From contig VMGA01000002.1 of assembly GCA_007376345.1 (NCBI GenBank), positions 8,309 through 72,308 of the forward strand: a stretch of 64,000 bases of DNA, written 5' to 3'. The translations under genes were made by a program, and so were the position numbers. Source of the stretch: Microgenomates group bacterium Gr01-1014_16 (GTDB lineage Bacteria; Patescibacteriota; Microgenomatia; CAZETR01; Amesbacteraceae). Below the pieces are notes generated by a model, which worked only from the letters and a program-made list of their open reading frames with translations, was not told the DNA's origin and made no database searches. This document shows, piece by piece, positions 3,815 to 14,584 of the stretch (the stretch's first letter is position 1; each line of letters begins with the position of its first letter).

Positions 3815-3838
3815 GATTGTATTAGTATAACATTGAAA

Positions 3839-4906
3839 CTACAGAAAATAATTATCAATTGCGAATTGTAATTGTTTCATATAAAGACTCTTGAAATTGT
3901 ACAAATTATTGATTTCGTAAAAGACAATCATCGCGCTCCGATATTCATTAACATCAATGCTTCGATATGATAACGGAAAATAGTCGTAAGCTAAAAGTAT
4001 CGCATTTGAAAGCATGCGAGATGTTCTTTTATTTCCGTCGGAAAACGGTTGAAGGTAAGCAATCATAATCGAAAGTATTAGTGCTTTTTCCGGAGGAAAT
4101 TCAGTTTTGTTTACGATCTCAATTAACTGCCTTAATACGCTTTCGATTTGATGTTTATCAGACAAGGGCTCATAGCGTGTTCCGGAAATTCTTACTTTTT
4201 GAGATCTAATCCCGGAAGTTACCAGACCATTCGTCAAAACCTGATGCAATTGAATAATATCGGAGAAGTCAAGTTTTTTGAATGAATCTTTTTTGTGCAA
4301 AATAACATCAAATGCTTTTTTATGGTTCAAAATCATCACAGCCTCTTCGTCAGAATGACCTTGGGCCTTGATATTTTGTTTAATCAAAGTTTCTGTTTCA
4401 ATCAAGGTGTACGTATTTCCTTCAATTTGAGACGATTTCCAAGAAAGTTCAATAATAAATCTTTCAAGTTCCCTTCTGTAAATGGAGGGGTCTAATTTAT
4501 CCCCCGCTTCCTTGAAAATATTTTTGCTTCTTTCCCATAATTTGATTTCGTCCGGAGAATATAAACTATTCAGGCGAGAAAATACGACATTATTGAAATT
4601 TTTGTTAACAACCCGACTTTCTGCTTCAGTTTTAAAATAACTGTCTAAATCGAGATAAGTAAGCAAGGGATTTGTCTCGGCCAATCCATAAGTGGTGTTC
4701 TTTCCCTTCTCCGATACCTTGACAATCTTCAGATCAATAAGACGATTTAGATCCCGTATAAAAGTGATTCTCGAAATACTTGCGTCTGGCGAGACAATGT
4801 CTGCTAAAGCAAGGCGGGAAACGCTCCCCATCTGTTTCAAAACATCGATGATTTTCTTTTGACGGCCATTGAGATTCGTATCATTCATATTCGTCAATCG
4901 TATCAT
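3839..4906 (-). CDS. Fic/Doc family protein with N-terminal HTH and a degenerate Doc-like active-site motif
   Basis: A 355-aa ORF with a DeoR-like wHTH at the N-terminus and an SSQIEGN (SxxxEG) inhibitory-helix motif. The Fic motif position reads QPFSDGNKRTSR (nt 4025-4051). The canonical form is HPFx[DE]GN[GK]RxxR, so the catalytic His is Gln and the NKR matches Doc. Confidence 0.7.
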   Translation of the reverse strand: MIRLTNMNDTNLNGRQKKIIDVLKQMGSVSRLALADIVSPDASISRITFIRDLNRLIDLKIVKVSEKGKNTTYGLAETNPLLTYLDLDSYFKTEAESRVVNKNFNNVVFSRLNSLYSPDEIKLWERSKNIFKEAGDKLDPSIYRRELERFIIELSWKSSQIEGNTYTLIETETLIKQNIKAQGHSDEEAVMILNHKKAFDVILHKKDSFKKLDFSDIIQLHQVLTNGLVTSGIRSQKVRISGTRYEPLSDKHQIESVLRQLIEIVNKTEFPPEKALILSIMIAYLQPFSDGNKRTSRMLSNAILLAYDYFPLSYRSIDVNEYRSAMIVFYEINNLYNFKSLYMKQLQFAIDNYFL

Positions 4907-5497: not shown

Positions 5498-6520
5498 TCA
5501 TTTGAGCGAATAATAGCTATTTTTGGTGCCACCTTTTTTTTTGACATATCCTTTATCAACTAAGCCCGCTAGCAGTTTGTGCGCTTGTTGGCGAGAAACC
5601 TTGAACTCGTTTACCAGATCTTGAGAAGTCACTTCGGCATGAGATTGGAGATATATGAGAATTTCTTGCTCTTTGGGGGTAGGTCTATCTATCACCTTTT
5701 CGCTCAACATGGTCGTTTCGATTCGTGAAAGAGCACTTTGGAGTGAATATTTCACGCCATCTGTAAAGTACGTGAGCCACTCACTTTTATCGCCTTCGTC
5801 GGCGGTACTCAATTTGTCGGAATACTCAAAACGATCCAAATCATAGTAATCATCTAAAACAAAATATTTATTGATTTGATACCCGTACTTGAGAAATATA
5901 AGGGCGGTGAGAAGACGGCAGGTACGACCGTTGCCGTCGACAAAAGGGTGAATATAGACGTATTGATGATGGAAAATACCAATTTTGAGTAAAGGAGAAG
6001 TGTCCGTATCTTGCTCAACCCAATTTAGTAACTCGGTTGATACTCTTTCAATTTCTAACTTATTGTGAAAAGGGGGTTCGTGTTTGACGCGTAATTTAGA
6101 GATACCATTCTTAGTTTCGTACCCCCCCACAACAACTCGAGTATTCCTGATCTGACCTGCGATGTCATTATCAACTGACTTAAGCAATTTAGTATGAAGA
6201 TCAGTCACCATTGAAAGAGTAAGAGGTTGGTTTACATGTTGATCTAGCGACTTGAGCAAGTCAAAATAATTTTTAACCTCCCGCTCATCACGGTTTGCAG
6301 GAATTCGATCACCTAGCAAAAGATTGGTTACTTCCGGGAAAGATAAAGGATTACCCTCGATACTATTACTGATGTAAGTGGATTTGATGAGATGGTCGCG
6401 CTGGAGATTAAGTTCGAGTTTTTTGGGGATGCGCAAACCCTCAAGTTGACCATATAGCCGCTCTATTTGGGTAAGATTGGCAATAATCCTAGGAGAAAGA
6501 GTAAATATGGGCTGGAACAT
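5498..6520 (-). CDS. Fic family protein with the canonical motif and an N-terminal inhibitory SxxxEG, plus a C-terminal wHTH
   Basis: HPFVDGNGRTCRLL (nt 5924-5950) is a perfect HPFx[DE]GNGRxxR. SNSIEGN sits near the N-terminus. A C-terminal wHTH-like tail is present. Confidence 0.8.
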   Translation of the reverse strand: MFQPIFTLSPRIIANLTQIERLYGQLEGLRIPKKLELNLQRDHLIKSTYISNSIEGNPLSFPEVTNLLLGDRIPANRDEREVKNYFDLLKSLDQHVNQPLTLSMVTDLHTKLLKSVDNDIAGQIRNTRVVVGGYETKNGISKLRVKHEPPFHNKLEIERVSTELLNWVEQDTDTSPLLKIGIFHHQYVYIHPFVDGNGRTCRLLTALIFLKYGYQINKYFVLDDYYDLDRFEYSDKLSTADEGDKSEWLTYFTDGVKYSLQSALSRIETTMLSEKVIDRPTPKEQEILIYLQSHAEVTSQDLVNEFKVSRQQAHKLLAGLVDKGYVKKKGGTKNSYYSLK

Positions 6521-6569: not shown

Positions 6570-9278
6570 TTAATTGTAAGCTATGCAACCGTCACCGAGC
6601 CTAATTCGGGTAGTGGCATTTTTTGTATTTCTTGCCCGAGTTGCACCAACAAGGATCGTTGCGACCGAGGGATTTGTGATCGTTTTTGATGGCGGTTTTT
6701 TGGAGACCGGGGTGGGTTGGGGGTGGTGGGTAGTGAGATTGGTAGTGGGGGTGGGGGCAAGGGGCTGGGGGCCTATTTGGATTCTAAATAAGCGCTTAGA
6801 AAATTCCGAGTCGATTTGGGCGTGAAGGCGTTCGAACATGGAAAAGGCTTCGCCTTTATACTCGACTAAGGGGTCCCTTTGGCCGTAACCCCGCAGGCCG
6901 ATGCCGGAGCGCAGATCATCGACGGCGTCAAGATGATCTATCCAGAGATTGTCGATAGATGAGAGGTAAGCGAACTTAACGATATTTTTCCAATCCGACT
7001 CTCCCACTTGGGATTTTCGTTGAGAAATAGTGTCTATGACAATTTGATTAATTAAAGTGGTAATTTCTTTGGCCGTTCCCAGGCGTTTGAACTCGGAGGC
7101 CATATTGGCTTGAGAAGCGTCGTCGAATGGGACGACTTCGACCAGAGCCATAACAATAGGAGCCACTTCAGATTCGATGATGCCGTGCGGGGCGTAAGCA
7201 TTAACAATGTTAGTTAGTCTAGTAGTTAGAAGGTTCGTTAGTTCAGAGTCAGTGATTTCGTTGTTGAGGACACGATGGCGCAGGCCATAGATAATTTCAC
7301 GCTGTTTATTCATGACGTCGTCGTAATCAACGACATGTTTTCTGGCGTCAAAGTTGAAACCCTCTACTTTGACCTGGGCCTGCTCGATAGCCTTGCTAAC
7401 CATAGAGTGTTCGATAGGTTCGTTTTCGGGAATTTTGAGAAAACCCATAATTTTGGCGACCTGGTCGCCACCAAAAATACGCATAATGTCGTCGTCTAAA
7501 GCCAGATAAAACCGGGAAGCGCCGGGATCGCCCTGGCGGCCCGAACGGCCACGCAGCTGATTGTCGATGCGGCGGGATTCGTGGCGCTCGGTGCCGATGA
7601 CATATAAGCCTCCGGAAGCGACAACTTCGTCATGGGCCTCCTGCCACTGCTTACGGGCTTTTTCGTATTGTTTGTCGGTGAGTTTGTCAATGCCTAGAAC
7701 AAATTTAGGGTTGGGGGGGGGAGTGCCGCCCAAGACAATATCCACGCCGCGACCGGCAATATTAGTAGCTATGGTCACCGCGCCACTTCGACCGGCTTCG
7801 GAGATAATAGTGGCTTCTTTTTCGTGATTTTTGGCATTTAAAATCTGGTGGGGAACGCCTTTGTGTTTAAGAAGCTCTGATACTGTTTCATTTTTTTCGA
7901 TTGAAGTGGTGCCCACCAAGACTGGCTGGCCGGCGGCGTGTAGCTTGGCAATTTCATCAGCCAACGCCGTGTACTTGGCCCGGGTGGTTTTGTAAATTAT
8001 ATCTGCATTGTCCTGCCTGATCATGGGGCGGTGGGTGGGGATAATCAGAACGTCGAGATTGTAAATTTTTCTGAATTCTTCGGCTTCAGTAGAAGCAGTT
8101 CCGGTCATACCGGCTAACTTTTCGTACATGCGGAAGTAGTTTTGGAAAGAAATGGTGGCCAGGGTCCGGGATTCCTGCTGGATCACGACGCCTTCTTTGG
8201 CCTCGACAGCCTGGTGCATACCTTCAGACCAGCGGCGGCCGGGCATAAGACGGCCGGTAAATTCATCGACAATAACCACTTCATTGCCGCGGACGATATA
8301 GTCCTTGTCCTTGTGAAACAAAGCTCTGGATTTGAGGGCGTTTTCCAGGTGATGAATGGTATCAAAATCTTTTTCGTAGAGGTTGTCAAGGCCGAGCATT
8401 TTTTCTGTTTTTTGTAACCCGTGTTCAGTGAGAGTGGCAGTCCGGTGTTTTTCATCAATAATATAGTCGGTATCCGGAGAAAGTCGGTCGACTAATTTGG
8501 CAAATTCGTAATATTTCTGAGTGGGCTCTGAGTCCGGAGCGGAAATAATCAGCGGAGTGCGGGCCTCGTCGATTAAAATTGAGTCGACCTCATCGACGAT
8601 GGCAAAGTGGTGTCCGCGCTGGACCATTTCGGAAGTATCACCGACCATATTGTCCCGCAGATAGTCAAAACCAAATTCGTTGTTGGTGCCATAAGTAATA
8701 TCGGCGGTGTAAGCCTCTTTCCTGGACACGGGACGTAAATGAGCCAAGCGGTCGTCCCCATGCACGGGATCGAAGTACTTGGGATCATACAACAATGATT
8801 GGTCGTGGATAATAACTCCCACGGACAGGCCTAAAAGGTGGAAAGTGGGACCGTTCCAGCCGGCGTCACGGCGGGCAAGATAATCGTTGACAGTGACCAA
8901 GTGAGAGCCCTGACCGGAGAGAGAATTGAGATAGAGAGCGGGGATGGCAGACAGGGTTTTGCCCTCGCCCGTCTTTTGCTCGGCAACATTGCCTTCGTGA
9001 AATGCCGTGGCTGCAATGAGCTGAACATCAAAAGGGCGCAGGCCGATAGCCTGATCAGACGCTTCGCGGACGAGAGCAAAAGCTTCCGGGAGAAGCTGGT
9101 CTAAAGTTTCGCCTGAGGAGAGACGGTTTTTAAATTCGGCCGTGGAGGCGATAAAATCTTCAGGTTTTTTTAATTTCTTATATTGATCCGTGAAAGTATT
9201 CACCTGGGCGACCTTGATTTTTATCCTGTCTACTTCTTTTTGATTTAGGTCTAAGAATTTGGAAAGAAACTTGAACAT
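6570..9278 (-). CDS. secA: Preprotein translocase ATPase SecA
   Basis: A 902-aa ORF with DEAD-like motor motifs ([20 protein letters not shown]) and SecA preprotein cross-linking and scaffold regions. The C-terminus is a Pro/Thr-rich tail without the CxCxSGx8CH zinc finger. Confidence 0.95.
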
Positions 9279-9303: not shown

Positions 9304-9966
9304 TTACTCGCAAATTATCATGAGATTGGCGAAGCTGCGGACGAGTTCTGTTTTGGAAAAATGATTTCCGACTAATTTTACAAACTCCTGGGCGCTGGTT
9401 TTGTTTGCAGAATTATAAAATAGCCGGTTAAAAATTACTAATTGACCTAATTGTTCTAATTGATCTAAAAATTCGGGTTGCGAAGTAAACGCCGGAATTT
9501 TGTCGCCAATATATAAATCGACCAGAATATAGTCAAAGTGATCTTTAGCGTTTAGCGTATAGCGTTTAGCGTCCAGCTGAATTATTTCTAAATTTGGGAT
9601 TTTGTCCAAATCAAAATATTTTTTTCCGATGTCGATCATGACGGGGTCGATTTCCACGCCGACCAATCGGGACGGAGTAAATTTTTGGGAAATTTGGCGA
9701 ACTACAGTTCCACCTGCCAGTCCTAAAACAAGCCAAGATTTGCCGGGGGAGGGTTTGATTTTTTTGAAAACAGGGAGCCAAAGCTTGTTGACAATGCCAC
9801 CGCTTTGGGTAACTTCGGCCACGTCGGTGTGGATATAGCGGGAACCAAAACCGTCTTTGACAATTATCCTGCCATTGAACCGGGAAGGGATTGTCGCCAA
9901 AATTTGGGGAACAAAATACTTTTTAAATTTGGCCTGAAGTTGGGATATGATTGGCACATATGGCAT
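9304..9966 (-). CDS. Spermidine-synthase-like class I SAM-dependent methyltransferase-fold protein
   Basis: WLVLGLAGGTVVRQI...VGVEIDPVMIDIGKKYF...FDYILVDLY matches the spermidine synthase fold. The start is placed at MPYVPIIS (9966). The longer ORF extending to 10161 has a low-complexity N-terminus and overlaps the divergent gene. Confidence 0.45.
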   Translation of the reverse strand: MPYVPIISQLQAKFKKYFVPQILATIPSRFNGRIIVKDGFGSRYIHTDVAEVTQSGGIVNKLWLPVFKKIKPSPGKSWLVLGLAGGTVVRQISQKFTPSRLVGVEIDPVMIDIGKKYFDLDKIPNLEIIQLDAKRYTLNAKDHFDYILVDLYIGDKIPAFTSQPEFLDQLEQLGQLVIFNRLFYNSANKTSAQEFVKLVGNHFSKTELVRSFANLMIICE

Positions 9967-10853
9967 TTTGGAGTGGATGGGGCAAACAGTCAAGCTGGCC
10001 GGATGGGTCGGCGCCGGTAAAACTGGAAATCGGGCTGGATATCCGGCATTGTCAGGAGTGGGCGGAATATACGAGAAAAATCGGATGGATCGTGGAAAAG
10101 ATTTCAGGGACTGAGTTTCAAATTTTTGTGAGAAAGTTCGGAATTTTCGGATCTGTAGCAAAGATTCAGAGAGTCCGACTGCCGTTGCCTTGGGGAGAAT
10201 TAAATAAAATGTTAAAAAAATACCGGGTGTTCTTTACGATAATTGAGCCAATGAATGGGAATTTTGACGAATTAAAGAACGCGGGTTTTAAAAAAGAAAA
10301 AGACGCGTTTCGAGCGACAAAGACTACCAGAATTGATTTAAGCGGAGATGTGTTGGCAAAATTTAAACGGGCCAGGTCTTGGATTAATAAATTGGCTGGA
10401 GAAAAGCATAAAATCGAAATCGGGAAAGCGGACAAATTCTTTGAGATTTGGAAAAAGGCGACAAAAATCCAACATCTTTGGTCGTCAAATAAAGCCCACT
10501 ATGACGCGCTGGTAAATAGTTTTGGGAAGTCAGCGTTTACAGTAACGGTCGATGACATGTGCGGGTGTCTGGTTTTGACGTACGACGGTGTGGCTTATTA
10601 CTATTACGGAGCGGCGCTACCGGATGCTAAGAGGAAAAGTTTACCGTATTTATATGTTTGGGAGGCCATGAAGGAGGCCAAAAAAAGAGGGGCAAAAATC
10701 TGGGACTGGGAAGGAGTGTATGATCCTAGATATCCGAATAGAGGCTGGAAAGGCTTTACGCAATTTAAAAAAACATTCGGGGGGGAAGAGGTATGGTTCC
10801 CGGGGACTTTCGGCAAAAGAACTATCGGTAACTTTTGGCCTGGAGGTTTTTGA
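9960..10853 (+). CDS. FemAB-family protein (peptidoglycan interpeptide-bridge aminoacyltransferase-like)
   Basis: C-terminal VAYYYYGAALPDAKRKSLPYLYVWEAMKEAKKRGAKIWDWEGV...FKKTFGG resembles the FemAB C-terminus yY.ygga...k...ylL.weai..a...G...yDfgG...FK..FG. The ATG is at 9960; the track extends to a TTG at 9951. The exact start is uncertain because it overlaps the divergent upstream gene by 7 nt. Confidence 0.45.
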   Translation: MAFWSGWGKQSSWPDGSAPVKLEIGLDIRHCQEWAEYTRKIGWIVEKISGTEFQIFVRKFGIFGSVAKIQRVRLPLPWGELNKMLKKYRVFFTIIEPMNGNFDELKNAGFKKEKDAFRATKTTRIDLSGDVLAKFKRARSWINKLAGEKHKIEIGKADKFFEIWKKATKIQHLWSSNKAHYDALVNSFGKSAFTVTVDDMCGCLVLTYDGVAYYYYGAALPDAKRKSLPYLYVWEAMKEAKKRGAKIWDWEGVYDPRYPNRGWKGFTQFKKTFGGEEVWFPGTFGKRTIGNFWPGGF

Positions 10854-11451
10854 AACTTTCTTGAAGAGCAAGGAGTATTAATTTTTCCAGCTTAGAATTA
10901 TCTCCAGAGTCCGCCTGCTGCATGGCGTGGATATATTTTCGCCGGTCATTACTTGTTCCTGCTTTAATTTCGATAGGTGGTAGGTTCATTGTTAAACAAA
11001 TGAAGGAGGTAAGCATTCTCGCTGTTCGGCCGTTGTAGTCGTTGAAGGGATGGGTATAAACGAAACGGTGTTGAAACCAGGTCAATAAATTGGTTAGTTC
11101 TTCCAGAAAACTTTCTTCGTCTAAGCTAGGTAAATGTTTTATTCTCTCCTGAAGGTCTAGACATAGGTCAGCTACCAATTGGGGAACTTGATAATGTGGC
11201 GGGGCTTCTTTGCCGGAATATTCAACCTGGATAGTCCTGAACTTCCCTGCCCATTTCGGAAATATCCAACCAAAGGCTTCTTTATGGAGAGATAAAATAA
11301 GAACTGAGGTAATTTTTGCTTTTTTTGTTTTTGAAATTGAATATAGAAACTTAATTCCCTTTTTGATTCCCTTTATTTCAAGTTTTACTAACTGGGAGCG
11401 GGGAATTATTCCAAAAGATGTTTCTTTGTATGAAGTTTCGCCAGTTTTCAT
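10822..11451 (-). CDS. Fic family protein, short form without an SxxxEG inhibitory motif
   Basis: HPFNDYNGRTARML (nt 11026-11052) matches the Fic core. The protein is 209 aa. The C-terminal LQAKSYR is encoded by a 22-nt sequence that is repeated at the ABC transporter 3' end. Confidence 0.7.
   Translation of the reverse strand: MKTGETSYKETSFGIIPRSQLVKLEIKGIKKGIKFLYSISKTKKAKITSVLILSLHKEAFGWIFPKWAGKFRTIQVEYSGKEAPPHYQVPQLVADLCLDLQERIKHLPSLDEESFLEELTNLLTWFQHRFVYTHPFNDYNGRTARMLTSFICLTMNLPPIEIKAGTSNDRRKYIHAMQQADSGDNSKLEKLILLALQESFKNLQAKSYR
10825..10846. repeat. Direct repeat copy 1, tcggtaacttttggcctggagg. Its partner is at 11610-11631
   Basis: 21 of 22 nt are identical between the copies. Copy 1 encodes the FemAB-like C-terminus (GNFWPGGF) on plus and the Fic C-terminus (LQAKSYR) on minus. 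Copy 2 encodes the ABC transporter C-terminus (LQAKSYQ) on minus. Confidence 0.8.
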
Positions 11452-11606
11452 TTAATCAGAGTTGTTACCATTTTCCTAGTCACTGGTTCGTTCTCCAACC
11501 TCATAGTCCGATAAATCATTTCCGGTAAAAAACCTTTAAAATACCCTGCTATATCTGATTTTTTAAATTTAATATTTATTTTTTTACGTTTCATAAATTT
11601 ATTATA

Positions 11607-13400
11607 TCATTGGTAACTTTTGGCCTGGAGGGTGAAGAGTTCAGAATAAGTGCCTTTTTGCTTCATCAACTGTTCGTGCGAGCCGGATTCTGAAACCGTT
11701 CCATTTTCTAATACCAAAATCCGATCGGCCTTGCGAACGGTGGAGAAACGGTGGGAGACGAGCATTAATATTTGGTCACGAGTAATTTTGAGGACGTTTT
11801 CAAATATTTCCTCTTCGGCCTTAGGGTCAACATTACTGGTGGGTTCGTCCAGTATCATTATGTTGGACTTTCTGAACATTGTCCGAGCCAACCCAATGCG
11901 TTGTTTTTGTCCCCCCGAAGGGTCAACGCCATGTTCCAGCTCTTTATTTAAAGGCGTTTCGTACTTTAAGGGCAAGGTTTCGATGTAAGCATCAATTTCA
12001 GCAAGTTTAGCTGCCTGTTTGACTTCACTTAAATTATTGACTCGAGAGAGATCTGAAAAAGCTATACTTTCGCGAGCTGAAAGGGGAAAGAGATGAAAAT
12101 CTTGTTGCAAGACTGAAATTTTGTGCCAGAGTTTTTGTAAATTATATTCGTGGACGGGGAGTCCGTTGATCAATATTTGTCCCTTTTGTGGAGAATGGAG
12201 ACCTAATAACAGTTTGAGCAGAGTGGTTTTTCCAGCGCCGTTTTCCCCGACTATAGCGACGTTGTCTGTGGGATTTATCGATAAAGAGACATCCTTCAAA
12301 ACCCAGTCGGTACTGGTGGGATATTTGAAAAATACATGATCGAAAACTATACCGGTGTGTAATTTGTCCGGGAGAATCTTTGTACCGGAGGATAATTTGG
12401 GGACGAGATCCATAAACCAGGTGAAGTCTTGGACAAACAGATAGTTTTCATAAACTACAGCTATGTTTTGGACAACCATATTGAATCCATTTGTTAAAGT
12501 GTTGGCAGCTTGATACAGCATCTGTGCACTACCTAAAGTGATCCTCCCAATTAGAGCAAGAATAAAGAAATAAGAATTAAGACCAATTACCAACAAAGTC
12601 AGAGGAACATCAGTAAATGTGCGCCACTTGACACGGCGGAAACGCAAAGCACGATTGATTTCTTCGACTTTCTCCTGAAGAGCATTCAATTTGGCGGTGA
12701 CATAATTTGCCGTATCATATAATTTGTTTTCATATATTTGCCGCGTGTCGGTGATAAGCCAACTGATCCAACCCCAAATGCGATATTCTTTATTGAGTGA
12801 ATCGCGATCACGATATTCGAGCTTGGCAAGCCGACCACTTACAAACGCCTCTGGAAGACTCGCTGCAATAATCACAAGAGTGATGAGCGGATTGAATGTA
12901 AAAAGAGGAATCGCACCAGAAATAATTGTAAAGATAGCGTTGGGGAAATCGGATAAAGGCGAGAGCATTCCCCAGACGCGCTGATTAGACTCGCGGGAAA
13001 CTTTTTTGTATTTGTCCTGAAAGACCGGTGATTCGATTGTGGGTATGTCTAGAGTGTTGAGTTTTACCCCCAACATGATTTCGATTTTGTTACTAATTTG
13101 ACTGGTCAGAAGATTGGTAACTGCATTTTGATAACGACTTAAAAAACTGCGGGCAAATTCAATTCCGGCTCGAAGGATTGCAATCCAAATGATCGTTCTG
13201 GCCACAACTTCCCAGTTTGGATGACCGATTGAAGATATAACCAAATCAAGCAGAATTTTATTGATGTATAAGATCGGCAGATTGGTAAGTCCCCAAAACG
13301 CGCTGATTATAGTAAGAAGAACCAGATATGACGGGTTGACTCGGTAAGCTAAAGCTAAAATACGGCGATATGTGAGAAAAAATCTCTTAAATGAATCCAT
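11607..13400 (-). CDS. ABC transporter, fused permease and ATP-binding protein (MsbA-like type I exporter)
   Basis: A 597-aa ORF with an N-terminal 6-TM domain, Walker A GENGAGKTTL, signature LSGGQKQRIGLAR and Walker B ILDEPTS. Confidence 0.85.
   Translation of the reverse strand: MDSFKRFFLTYRRILALAYRVNPSYLVLLTIISAFWGLTNLPILYINKILLDLVISSIGHPNWEVVARTIIWIAILRAGIEFARSFLSRYQNAVTNLLTSQISNKIEIMLGVKLNTLDIPTIESPVFQDKYKKVSRESNQRVWGMLSPLSDFPNAIFTIISGAIPLFTFNPLITLVIIAASLPEAFVSGRLAKLEYRDRDSLNKEYRIWGWISWLITDTRQIYENKLYDTANYVTAKLNALQEKVEEINRALRFRRVKWRTFTDVPLTLLVIGLNSYFFILALIGRITLGSAQMLYQAANTLTNGFNMVVQNIAVVYENYLFVQDFTWFMDLVPKLSSGTKILPDKLHTGIVFDHVFFKYPTSTDWVLKDVSLSINPTDNVAIVGENGAGKTTLLKLLLGLHSPQKGQILINGLPVHEYNLQKLWHKISVLQQDFHLFPLSARESIAFSDLSRVNNLSEVKQAAKLAEIDAYIETLPLKYETPLNKELEHGVDPSGGQKQRIGLARTMFRKSNIMILDEPTSNVDPKAEEEIFENVLKITRDQILMLVSHRFSTVRKADRILVLENGTVSESGSHEQLMKQKGTYSELFTLQAKSYQ
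11610..11631. repeat. Direct repeat copy 2, ttggtaacttttggcctggagg
   Basis: See copy 1. The two copies flank the Fic gene and its 155-bp AT-rich upstream region. Confidence 0.8.
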
Positions 13401-13402
13401 GA

Positions 13403-14584
13403 TTATATTCTAGACTCTGGGGGTGATTTTGTCTTTGCCCATGTAGGGGCGGTTCTGGAAGTGGCAACGGCGGTGCCGTTTAACATGTGTATAAACTCGA
13501 TTTCGCCGGTTTTGCGCTTGAATTTAATGTTTAAATTTCTAGCCTGATAATCGGTACAATTGGAAGTAGATGTGACCTCGCCGTAATCATCTCTCGTTGG
13601 CATCCAGGCCTCGATATCAAATTTGCGGGCGGCCATGGCGCCCAAATCCCCGGTACACATTTCCAAAACTCTGTACGGCAGGCCAAGATTTTGATAGATT
13701 TTTTCTTCCATGTCCAAAATGTGGAGATGCATTTTTTCGGACTCTTCCGGCAGGCAGTAGATAAACATTTCGGCCTTGGTAAATTCGTGGACGCGATAAA
13801 GACCTTTGGAATATTTGCCATAAGCCCCGGCTTCCTGGCGGAAACAGTGTGAATAACCGATGTATTTAATAGGAAGTTTATCTTGCGGAATTATTTCATC
13901 GGCGTGTTTGCCGGCCAGAGTCACTTCGGCTGTGGCAATTAGTCCTAAATCTTCGTCTTGAATAGTGTATGTCTGGGCTTCGCTGCCCTTGGGTGCGTAG
14001 CCGGTGCCAAGATAATATCTGGCTTTGGCAAGATCAGGAGTAATAACCGGAAGAAAGCCTTCTTTGGATAAGAGGTCAAACGCATAGCGAACCAGAGCTA
14101 ATTCTAATAAAGCCCCGTCGCCATAAAGAAAATAAAATTGCGACCCAGAAACTTTAGCGCCGGTGGGAAAATCTAATATTTTTAATTTTTCGCCCAGCTC
14201 TAAATGATCAAGTGGCTTGAAATCAAATTTTCTGGGTTCACCCCATTTACGAACTTCGACGTTATCTTTTTCAGATTTGCCCGTGGGCGCTAGGGGGGAT
14301 GGCATGTTTGGTATTTGCAAGAGGAGCGCTTGCGAAGCTAATTCGGCAGCTGATAGCTGGGGTTCTAGTTCTTTGAGCTGGATCTTTATTTTTTTGCCTT
14401 CGTCAATTTGATCTTTGGTTAGCTTGTTGCGGGCTGCATGGAGCGCTTCCACAAGACCAATTAACTCGCGGTGTTTCTTGTCCAGTACGACAACTTCATC
14501 GACTAATTTGGGATCGAGACCTTTGGCGGTAATGCCGGCTTTGACTTTGTCGGGATTGTCTCGAATGAGTTTGATGTCGATCAT
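13403..14584 (-). CDS. serS: Seryl-tRNA synthetase
   Basis: An N-terminal coiled-coil arm (MIDIKLIRDNPDKV) and a class II core (FRQEAGAYGKYSKGLYRVHEFTKAEMF, GTAVATSRT). The start is at the internal MIDIK (14584), which gives an ATGA overlap with the upstream gene. Confidence 0.9.
   Translation of the reverse strand: MIDIKLIRDNPDKVKAGITAKGLDPKLVDEVVVLDKKHRELIGLVEALHAARNKLTKDQIDEGKKIKIQLKELEPQLSAAELASQALLLQIPNMPSPLAPTGKSEKDNVEVRKWGEPRKFDFKPLDHLELGEKLKILDFPTGAKVSGSQFYFLYGDGALLELALVRYAFDLLSKEGFLPVITPDLAKARYYLGTGYAPKGSEAQTYTIQDEDLGLIATAEVTLAGKHADEIIPQDKLPIKYIGYSHCFRQEAGAYGKYSKGLYRVHEFTKAEMFIYCLPEESEKMHLHILDMEEKIYQNLGLPYRVLEMCTGDLGAMAARKFDIEAWMPTRDDYGEVTSTSNCTDYQARNLNIKFKRKTGEIEFIHMLNGTAVATSRTAPTWAKTKSPPESRI

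Follow-up and report, generated by a model that had tools for sequence, protein, structure and literature searches.

A 64-kb window (the whole stretch of DNA analysed here, 64,000 nucleotides of contig VMGA01000002.1) from an uncultured groundwater bacterium of the Candidate Phyla Radiation (CPR; NCBI name Microgenomates group bacterium Gr01-1014_16) contains a small Fic gene cassette that lies between two convergent genes and is flanked by a short direct repeat. On one side is a FemAB-like peptidoglycan bridge-formation gene (9960-10853, plus strand; Pfam PF02388, E = 1e-9; orthologues P0121-P0125), and on the other an ABC exporter gene (11607-13400, minus strand; Pfam PF00005, ABC_tran) whose product, a fused permease and ATPase of 597 amino acids, ends ...TLQAKSYQ-stop. 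The inserted module (10847-11608, minus strand, 762 bp) is placed immediately behind the final sense codon of the ABC exporter and consists of an extended -10 promoter-like element (11601-11609, TGATATAAT), an antitoxin-like open reading frame (ORF) of 48 amino acids (11448-11594) and a Fic gene (10822-11451) up to its codon N202, all on the minus strand. Its start side reads TGATATAATAAATTTATG and its 3' end ...GAAAGTTTCAAAAA, and its GC content is 36%, compared with 42-44% in the flanking genes. The Fic-domain protein comprises 209 amino acids (Pfam PF02661, E = 3.4e-13, over the gathering score) with the active-site motif HPFNDYNGRTAR, and its start overlaps the end of the antitoxin-like ORF in an ATGA.

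The direct repeat, ATYGGTAACTTTTGGCCTGGAGG, is 23 nt long, with copies at 10824-10846 and 11609-11631 that are identical at 22/23 positions; its period is 785 bp and the segment between the copies is the 762 bp of the module. The initial annotation had reported it as the 22-mers TCGGTAACTTTTGGCCTGGAGG (10825-10846) and TTGGTAACTTTTGGCCTGGAGG (11610-11631), which are located as claimed, although the repeat reaches one base further left. Copy 1 (ATCGGTAACTTTTGGCCTGGAGG) encodes the Fic residues LQAKSYR plus the first base of the stop codon on the minus strand and the FemAB residues IGNFWPGG on the plus strand, while copy 2 (ATTGGTAACTTTTGGCCTGGAGG) encodes the native ABC exporter C-terminus LQAKSYQ on the minus strand, so that three genes (ABC, Fic and FemAB) take C-terminal coding sequence from the 23-mer. 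The last seven residues and the stop codon of Fic (...NLQAKSYR-stop) come from copy 1 and the adjoining FemAB sequence. For the FemAB-like gene the last eight sense codons (IGNFWPGG) are from copy 1 and the final codon F and TGA stop from the inserted module, and the ABC gene now stops at the TGA (11607-11609) of the promoter-like element. The coding assignments first made for these ends, LQAKSYQ-stop for ABC and LQAKSYR-stop for Fic on the minus strand and GNFWPGGF-stop for FemAB on the plus strand, are confirmed. In the FemAB frame, copy 2 translates to IGNFWPGG with TGA immediately behind it, and an overlapping FemAB/ABC arrangement would thus give an intact FemAB; the tails of FemAB orthologues are related and aromatic (IGNFWPSGTIKT-stop, WGNLW..., LRNLFPTT-stop).

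The check for other copies of the 22-mer proposed in the initial annotation found only these two in the 64-kb window with up to three mismatches, where none is expected (100 shuffles), and we reject a chance or genome-wide repeat. An assembly artefact is also unlikely, as the ENA ERZ27284378 and Logan SRR8863434 assemblies of the same organism agree with the window at every base across the region, though the three may share reads. There are no inverted repeats at the insert ends (10847 and 11608), and the closest such pair (10762-10775 with 11556-11569) lies away from the ends.

The module and its predicted products

The 155 bp upstream of the Fic gene had been described as AT-rich, but this region holds both the conserved 48-amino-acid ORF and the promoter-like element, which had been missed. 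In a set of 80 related loci from metagenomes, a small ORF (~55-60 amino acids) lies upstream of Fic in nearly all relatives with enough flank, with the family consensus ...FLRxFMPEIIFRTTKLEGExVTRKMV..., and R29, L33, E34 and E36 of the antitoxin-like ORF are invariant (45 sequences). Its motif TMRLEN fits the Fic inhibitory-helix motif (S/T)xxxE(G/N). An hhalign comparison of the antitoxin family with the window's single-chain Fic protein placed the motif on the SNSIEGNP helix, a match that is not significant (E = 0.095). The antitoxin family profile had no meaningful match in the PDB, an alignment to FICD after joining the antitoxin and Fic ORFs did not extend into the antitoxin, and Pfam, NCBIfam and PADLOC contain no model for the family.

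The nearest solved relatives of the Fic protein in the PDB are human FICD/HYPE (2e-17) and VbhT (9e-5). At the active site the motif reads HPFxDYNGRxxR; it does not match the canonical HxFx(D/E)GNGRxxR, because a Y occupies the position of the first G. Among 24 family members, D138, Y139, N140, G141 and R142 do not vary. According to PADLOC the protein is related to the defence candidate PDC-S04 (2e-27), and NCBIfam gives a weak relation to 'mobile mystery protein B'. Class I Fic modules are defined by a separate antitoxin that supplies the inhibitory helix (PMC3667792), and the window has both a Fic domain and a separate upstream small protein with (S/T)xxxE(G/N). With the class I pairs VbhA/VbhT and EcFicA/EcFicT (Engel et al. 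2012; PMC3667792) it shares the overlapping upstream small ORF, the conserved-glutamate motif and the Fic core fold. In contrast to them, its Fic core is nearer to class II FICD/HYPE than to VbhT, its motif has the invariant Y for the canonical G, and its antitoxin is without a library model. Deviating Fic motifs may point to other activities (PMC3667792).

The promoter-like element TG.TA[TAC]AAT lies exactly at -15 from the antitoxin ATG in 22/48 unique modules, including that of the window, and where modules from unrelated contexts are compared, their homology sets in at -17 to -19, at the promoter. A -35/-10 promoter scan did not list this extended -10 element. In the window (11592-11609, minus strand) the fixed -15 element leaves 6 nt before the antitoxin start codon, without a Shine-Dalgarno sequence, which suggests that the antitoxin transcript may be leaderless or near-leaderless. 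As far as the sequence can tell, it is largely shown that the insert is a self-contained toxin-antitoxin-type module made up of promoter, antitoxin and Fic gene.

Two further Fic genes lie near and downstream of SecA in the window (3839-4906 and 5498-6520, both minus strand), bringing the organism to at least three Fic proteins within 8 kb. Their products of 355 and 340 amino acids are of a different Fic type, single-chain proteins that contain the motif SxxxEG(N) internally and carry a DNA-binding-like extension at the C-terminus, and we found no flanking repeats at either gene.

The insertion site in relatives and the source of the Fic tail

If the Fic gene had borrowed the 3' end of its neighbour, as first proposed, the shared tail should be native to the ABC exporter and foreign to Fic proteins. 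The tail LQAKSY[QKRH]-stop terminates every ABC exporter orthologue down to about 50% identity, and no LQAKSY tail occurs among about 200 Fic relatives, a family whose sequences normally close with a conserved helix (...LExLIxxALxESLxK) and, after it, a short tail that varies. Because the tail is universal in the ABC orthologues and absent from the Fic relatives, the Fic tail is a copy of the ABC tail, and the proposed borrowing holds. Exact-protein look-ups with the Fic and ABC proteins returned the same strain only, and a scan of genome contigs with the ABC protein found only distant ABC transporters (24-41% identity).

That the Fic unit is an insertion, another claim of the initial annotation, is borne out by syntenic Amesbacteria relatives, which have the order SecA, methyltransferase, convergent FemAB and ABC, and SerRS with a 44-bp spacer and no Fic gene, and by L113 and L114 (related loci are given by number throughout), where the methyltransferase gene directly adjoins ABC without any module. 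The nearest Fic relative, L032, likewise lies directly after the stop codon of an ABC orthologue (...TLQAKSYQ-stop, as TAG, then A and TGATATAAT...), and its ABC, antitoxin and Fic sequences are each about 66% identical to those of the window (66% of amino acids for Fic). The ends of the two modules agree within 1-2 nt. At L032, however, there is no duplication: the module is bounded exactly by the ABC stop on one side and the methyltransferase ATG on the other, a position for which L113 (TAA, one nucleotide, ATG) is the matching empty site, and its Fic ORF draws its tail from the methyltransferase start, into which it runs to end ...AILNV-stop. The L032 ABC gene is 71.6% identical in nucleotides to that of the empty-site L113 and 67% to that of the window, and the window ABC is nearest to that of the module-free L028. 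Since both ABC genes are closer to module-free genomes, separate gains at the ABC site, or several losses, are needed to account for this.

In the nearest relative of the window, L028/L029 (ABC 94% identical in amino acids and 88% in nucleotides), homology to the window stops exactly at 11609, and three tiny membrane ORFs and a 139-amino-acid gene stand in place of FemAB and Fic. A small membrane ORF adjoins ABC in L112, L027 has FemAB plus a 145-amino-acid gene, and in L019 a small membrane ORF comes after FemAB. Between the methyltransferase and ABC genes there is thus a hotspot, a slot of mosaic content that is different in almost every relative. The initial annotation had predicted an empty site in which FemAB and ABC overlap and share a single 22-mer; none was found among the relatives compared, and instead of this exact single-copy junction they have the 44-bp spacer, other cassettes (L027, L028, L019, L112) or no FemAB. 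The other cassettes of the slot (the 145-amino-acid gene of L027; the 139-amino-acid gene and small ORFs of L028) have flanking repeats at background level only. The FemAB tail of L019, beside its different cassette, already has the left-hand 17 of the 23 repeat bases (ATCGGTAACTTTTGGCC). Copy 1 of the window continues with TGGAGG, like the ABC tail, whereas L019 has CAGTGG, so that the repeat is new in the window lineage over its right-hand third at least. The identity of the window ABC gene to that of L028 is uniform (85-93% in nucleotides) up to the gene end, and we reject a mosaic, donor-derived 3' tract.

The tiny membrane-protein ORFs (about 26-65 amino acids, with overlapping start and stop codons) converge on the ABC tail in several relatives (L028, 2272-3139; L019, 1445-1649; L112, 2824-2907), and the 139-145-amino-acid gene of L027 and L028, which occupies the same slot, is conserved and has no Pfam match. 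An ORF of L029 that reads into the ABC tail (...DNFWPGG-stop) was considered as an overlapping convergent gene and discounted, as it probably mis-frames membrane ORFs of the L028 type. Just upstream of the repeat, at about residues 583-586 (window 11640-11655), the window ABC protein reads ...GTYSELFTLQAKSYQ where nearly all orthologues have ...YAKLF..., a local two-residue change.

Duplicated host sequences across the module family

For the 62 loci with enough flank we determined the longest direct repeat, with at most one mismatch, between two intervals (-200 to +60 of the antitoxin start and -60 to +150 of the Fic stop), with a cut-off of at least 15 nt. Such repeats (15-57 nt) are present at 19/62 loci, or 15 distinct loci after near-identical contigs are collapsed, as against 1/238 in shifted intervals and 2/400 in mismatched locus pairs. 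Flanking duplications are a statistically robust property of the Fic module family. Local alignment adds longer and more diverged repeats at L036 (169 nt, 82% identity), L049 (76 nt), L044 (56 nt) and L053/L060 (about 62 nt), and duplications above 30 nt include those of L059 (78 nt), L070 (83 nt), L036 and L044. Overall, the duplication length spans 0 (L032) to about 170 nt (L036), and the inner boundaries shift by tens of nucleotides.

The repeat sequences are locus-specific copies of adjacent host features. At L051, L058/63/64 and L059 the copied feature is the SecA 3' end, at L038, L053 and L060 the 5' end of a gene for a YchF-like GTPase together with its promoter, at L039 the tail of a 252-amino-acid gene and at L054 the 3' end of tRNA-Trp. 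L054 is the only locus at which a tRNA gene overlaps the repeat, so that we reject tRNA genes as general targets. At L042, L047 and L051 the final residues of Fic and its stop codon come from the downstream repeat copy, as in the window; the Fic tail of L051 is drawn from the SecA tail. In L070 and L047 the repeat is made of the module's own ends. At L047 a copy of the module's 3' end lies upstream. The 83-nt repeat of L070 (82/83 identical; 3815-3897 and 4672-4754) contains the module's own promoter and about the first 23 antitoxin codons, and its second copy, 38 nt past the Fic stop, resembles a circularly permuted copy or part of a head-to-tail tandem.

Pairs of related modules lie in contexts that have nothing in common (L039/L047, 91% identical; L059/L079, 80%; L068/L109, 80%; L037/L044, 79%), and the homology of such pairs ends around the Fic stop. 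L047 carries an orphan AVRKFEK-stop that equals the repeat which L039 shares with its upstream host gene, and the upstream context of L047 is different. In the Fic tree, modules at the same site (ABC, SecA, YchF) tend to cluster, with several site switches. There is no recombinase gene in or beside the insert of the window, which holds the antitoxin and Fic genes only, and the tyrosine-recombinase box II motif is absent from the window and the 80 loci by a crude scan, in agreement with the earlier remark that no recombinase is visible. No phage, viral-contig or close plasmid copies of the module family were found.

The differences between coding copies of the repeats fall into about 46 synonymous and 8-9 non-synonymous codons (L053 13:0, L036 19:5, L060 9:3, L044 5:0-1). 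The two copies descend from two functional alleles, because their differences are mostly synonymous (~85%), compared with the ~40% estimated for an in-place duplicate that decays. The YchF-like orphan 5' fragments upstream of the modules of L053 (105-166 vs 1031-1092) and L060 (3691-3755 vs 4700-4765) differ from the intact gene at synonymous sites only, including a TCC/AGT serine switch. By reading of the aligned sequences, the two orphans also differ from each other almost only at synonymous sites, which one would not expect of non-functional fragments that share one origin.

Possible routes of insertion and related systems

Insertion of the Fic module directly after the ABC exporter gene, by recombination anchored in homology, is the best explanation of these observations and probably the correct one. 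In such a model the incoming DNA would carry the module together with a short piece of the ABC 3' end. This piece would recombine homologously on one side, and an illegitimate joint would form on the other, at the start of the recipient's own tail, making the route a variant of homology-facilitated illegitimate recombination (HFIR) or an equivalent single crossover of a circular copy. The junction before insertion would have been AGAACTATYGGTAACTTTTGGCCTGGAGGGTGAAGAGTTC, in which FemAB is joined to ABC through one 23-mer. As the module ends within the Fic ORF, without a stop codon of its own, Fic reads the second copy in the ABC frame to give LQAKSYR-stop, and the TGA of the promoter element replaces the ABC stop codon. 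The ABC-side copy completes ABC and the other copy FemAB on the opposite strand. FemAB would remain intact only in products with the recipient tail kept, and selection would thus fix the duplication. We infer an origin by recombination rather than by a dedicated enzyme, and the duplication was presumably kept since FemAB needs this sequence on the other strand.

Several points weigh against this account. The possible anchor in the window is only about 23 nt, whereas anchors in classical HFIR are longer than about 150 nt. The 3' end of the window ABC gene shows no divergent donor tract, and therefore either the homologous anchor was very short (about 23 nt) or the donor was near-identical. No relative has an empty site with overlapping FemAB and ABC genes, and the event may have been a cassette replacement rather than an insertion into such an overlap, because L028 and L112 have small membrane ORFs at ABC and L019 has FemAB and then such an ORF. 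The similarity of the repeat copies may in part be older than the Fic insertion, as in the L019 tail. The own-end repeats of L070 and L047 are easier to reconcile with a circular or tandem intermediate than with a linear fragment, and the synonymous pattern could also result if homologous recombination later replaced the host gene by another allele. Finally, the Fic motif has Y for G, and toxin activity and its neutralisation are predicted properties.

The alternatives, in our order of preference, are an older repeat, a circular cycle, an integrase in trans and a transposase in trans. If the repeat is older than the Fic module, the FemAB tail and the antisense ABC tail would be near-identical relics of an earlier overlap or insertion, bracketing a cassette slot, and Fic would have replaced another cassette, the small membrane ORFs, by homologous exchange between strains without creating the repeat. 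The FemAB tail of L019, with ATCGGTAACTTTTGGCC beside a small membrane ORF and not Fic, the homologous small ORFs that adjoin the ABC tail in L028 and L112 and the variable content of the slot between methyltransferase and ABC all agree with this. Yet the other cassettes of the slot (L027, L028) are without significant flanking repeats, such repeats are statistically tied to the Fic family at many unrelated sites, the right-hand third of copy 1 is new in the window lineage and the 22/23 identity suggests a recent event, which together leave an older repeat unlikely. We are similarly doubtful of a circular intermediate, in which the module would be excised via its flanking repeats and re-enter by a Campbell-type single crossover through the host sequence that it carries, such that the repeat is regenerated and the same gene end is targeted in new hosts. 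Such a cycle would account for the own-end repeats of L070 and L047, which resemble circular permutations or partial tandems, for the clustering of same-site modules in the tree and for repeat copies that differ like two alleles, and 23 nt is near the shortest homology on which RecA can recombine DNA in E. coli. A life cycle of this kind has been proposed for restriction-modification units by Kobayashi's group (PMC2853133). However, no circular junction was observed, L032 lacks any repeat at the same ABC site, and the first arrival at a new site is left unexplained.

A tyrosine integrase encoded elsewhere, with the repeat as the core of its attachment (att) site and the module bringing a replacement gene end, would be in keeping with targets that are 3' or 5' ends of genes, once the tRNA-Trp 3' end (L054), and with repeat lengths of 15-80 nt, which are typical of att sites. 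Phages e14 and 21 at icd supply a replacement gene end, with copies that differ mainly synonymously, and the synonymous differences between the copies here resemble that case. We consider an integrase improbable nonetheless, as there is none in or near the repeat-bounded units (with box II absent by the crude scan mentioned above), one family has many unrelated repeat sequences and sometimes none, no conserved att-like sequence is present inside the module apart from the promoter, and phage or viral copies were not found. Least probable of all is the transposon-type target-site duplication that had been suggested for this locus, with staggered cleavage by a transposase or casposase-like enzyme acting in trans on a non-autonomous module. 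It would explain why direct repeats of host sequence lie exactly at the insert boundaries and why the 5' end of the module is sharply set at the promoter in several contexts, and IS1634-type elements show that long and variable duplications are possible, a Mycoplasma transposon that forms such direct repeats being cited in PMC2853133. Terminal inverted repeats are absent, however, the 3' boundary varies, the duplication has lengths between 0 (at the same site in L032) and about 170 nt, and the ~85% synonymous differences contrast with the ~40% estimated for duplication in place and subsequent decay. We also rejected a retroelement-style insertion with a poly-A tail, as there are five A's at the window junction and none at other junctions.

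Beyond the homology-anchored insertion favoured above, the family could be a recombinase-free mobile cassette of the CPR in which the orphan pieces of former host neighbours act as homing arms that, through host recombination, lead the module to the same gene ends (ABC, SecA, YchF) in new lineages; this is a tentative extension, and on balance we doubt it. The unit would then consist of the extended -10 promoter, the antitoxin and a stopless Fic gene, inserting flush at gene ends where the host completes the toxin ORF, and toxin-antitoxin addiction would stabilise each insertion. If this were true, the duplicated gene ends would be a targeting device and not a by-product.

Insertion with long target duplication of restriction-modification units, reportedly described by Nobusato et al. 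in Gene in 2000, fits the observations better than a transposase footprint. Such insertions are variable, involve no mobility gene, have an unknown mechanism and occur mainly in naturally competent bacteria (Furuta, Abe & Kobayashi 2010, PMC2853133). In both cases a small selfish or addictive unit without a mobility gene is flanked by direct repeats of local host sequence, the repeats are long and vary with each event, and overlap with 3' gene ends and gene fusions at the junctions are possible. In contrast to those insertions, the cargo here is of the Fic toxin-antitoxin type and the hosts are CPR bacteria (Microgenomates), the module regularly ends within the toxin ORF and takes a host stop codon, and some Fic insertions lack a duplication. 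The 23-nt repeat of the window is below the 30-nt cut-off of PMC2853133, which other loci of the family exceed, and the DNA-breakage account given for restriction enzymes is not obviously applicable to Fic.

Effector-immunity modules of the type VI secretion system and Rhs or contact-dependent inhibition modules have been proposed to be displaced by homology-facilitated illegitimate recombination, with orphans retained (Kirchberger et al. 2017, PMC5361080). There too a toxin-immunity-type module lies beside a conserved upstream gene as a possible anchor, the old downstream piece stays as an orphan, and successive events leave nested orphans, comparable to L039/L047. The orphans left there comprise complete immunity genes or 3' ends of toxins, and the anchor is long, whereas here host gene ends of 15-170 nt and an anchor of ~23 nt are involved. 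With integrase islands and prophages (e14 and phage 21 at icd; tRNA-targeting islands) the family shares direct repeats at gene ends and mainly synonymous differences between the copies, but it has no integrase, a unit below 1 kb and many unrelated repeats, sometimes none.

Our literature search found no report of such behaviour for toxin-antitoxin modules or in CPR bacteria, and nothing relevant on Fic toxin-antitoxin modules in the CPR. The movement of toxin-antitoxin modules is poorly understood where no transposon, integron or prophage carries them, and a single family here gives dozens of natural junctions. The present observations extend insertion with long target duplication from restriction-modification units to a toxin-antitoxin-type module and to the CPR, a setting of tiny genomes and overlapping genes in which the acquisition of new genes is thought to rely on uptake of DNA, and they offer a testable model of recombinase-free gene gain in compact genomes. 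Short repeated gene ends beside small accessory genes are a usable marker of recent insertions in metagenome-assembled genomes, and the C-terminal tails of such accessory genes may be junction artefacts rather than conserved protein features.

Some further features of the window lie outside the module. Compared with the two other assemblies, the window lacks 62 nt at 13451/13452 (the SerRS 3' end) and 37 nt at 6708-6710 (the SecA 3' end). Both gaps cause frameshifts, which put the C-terminal zinc-finger motif of SecA out of frame and leave SerRS without its conserved C-terminus, and they are most likely errors of the metagenome-assembled genome and not real biology. The methyltransferase gene contains an internal 14-nt tandem duplication (9546-9573; TAGCGTTTAGCGTA / TAGCGTTTAGCGTC), and at the equivalent position of L028 there is a similar repeat, 'tagcgtctag'.

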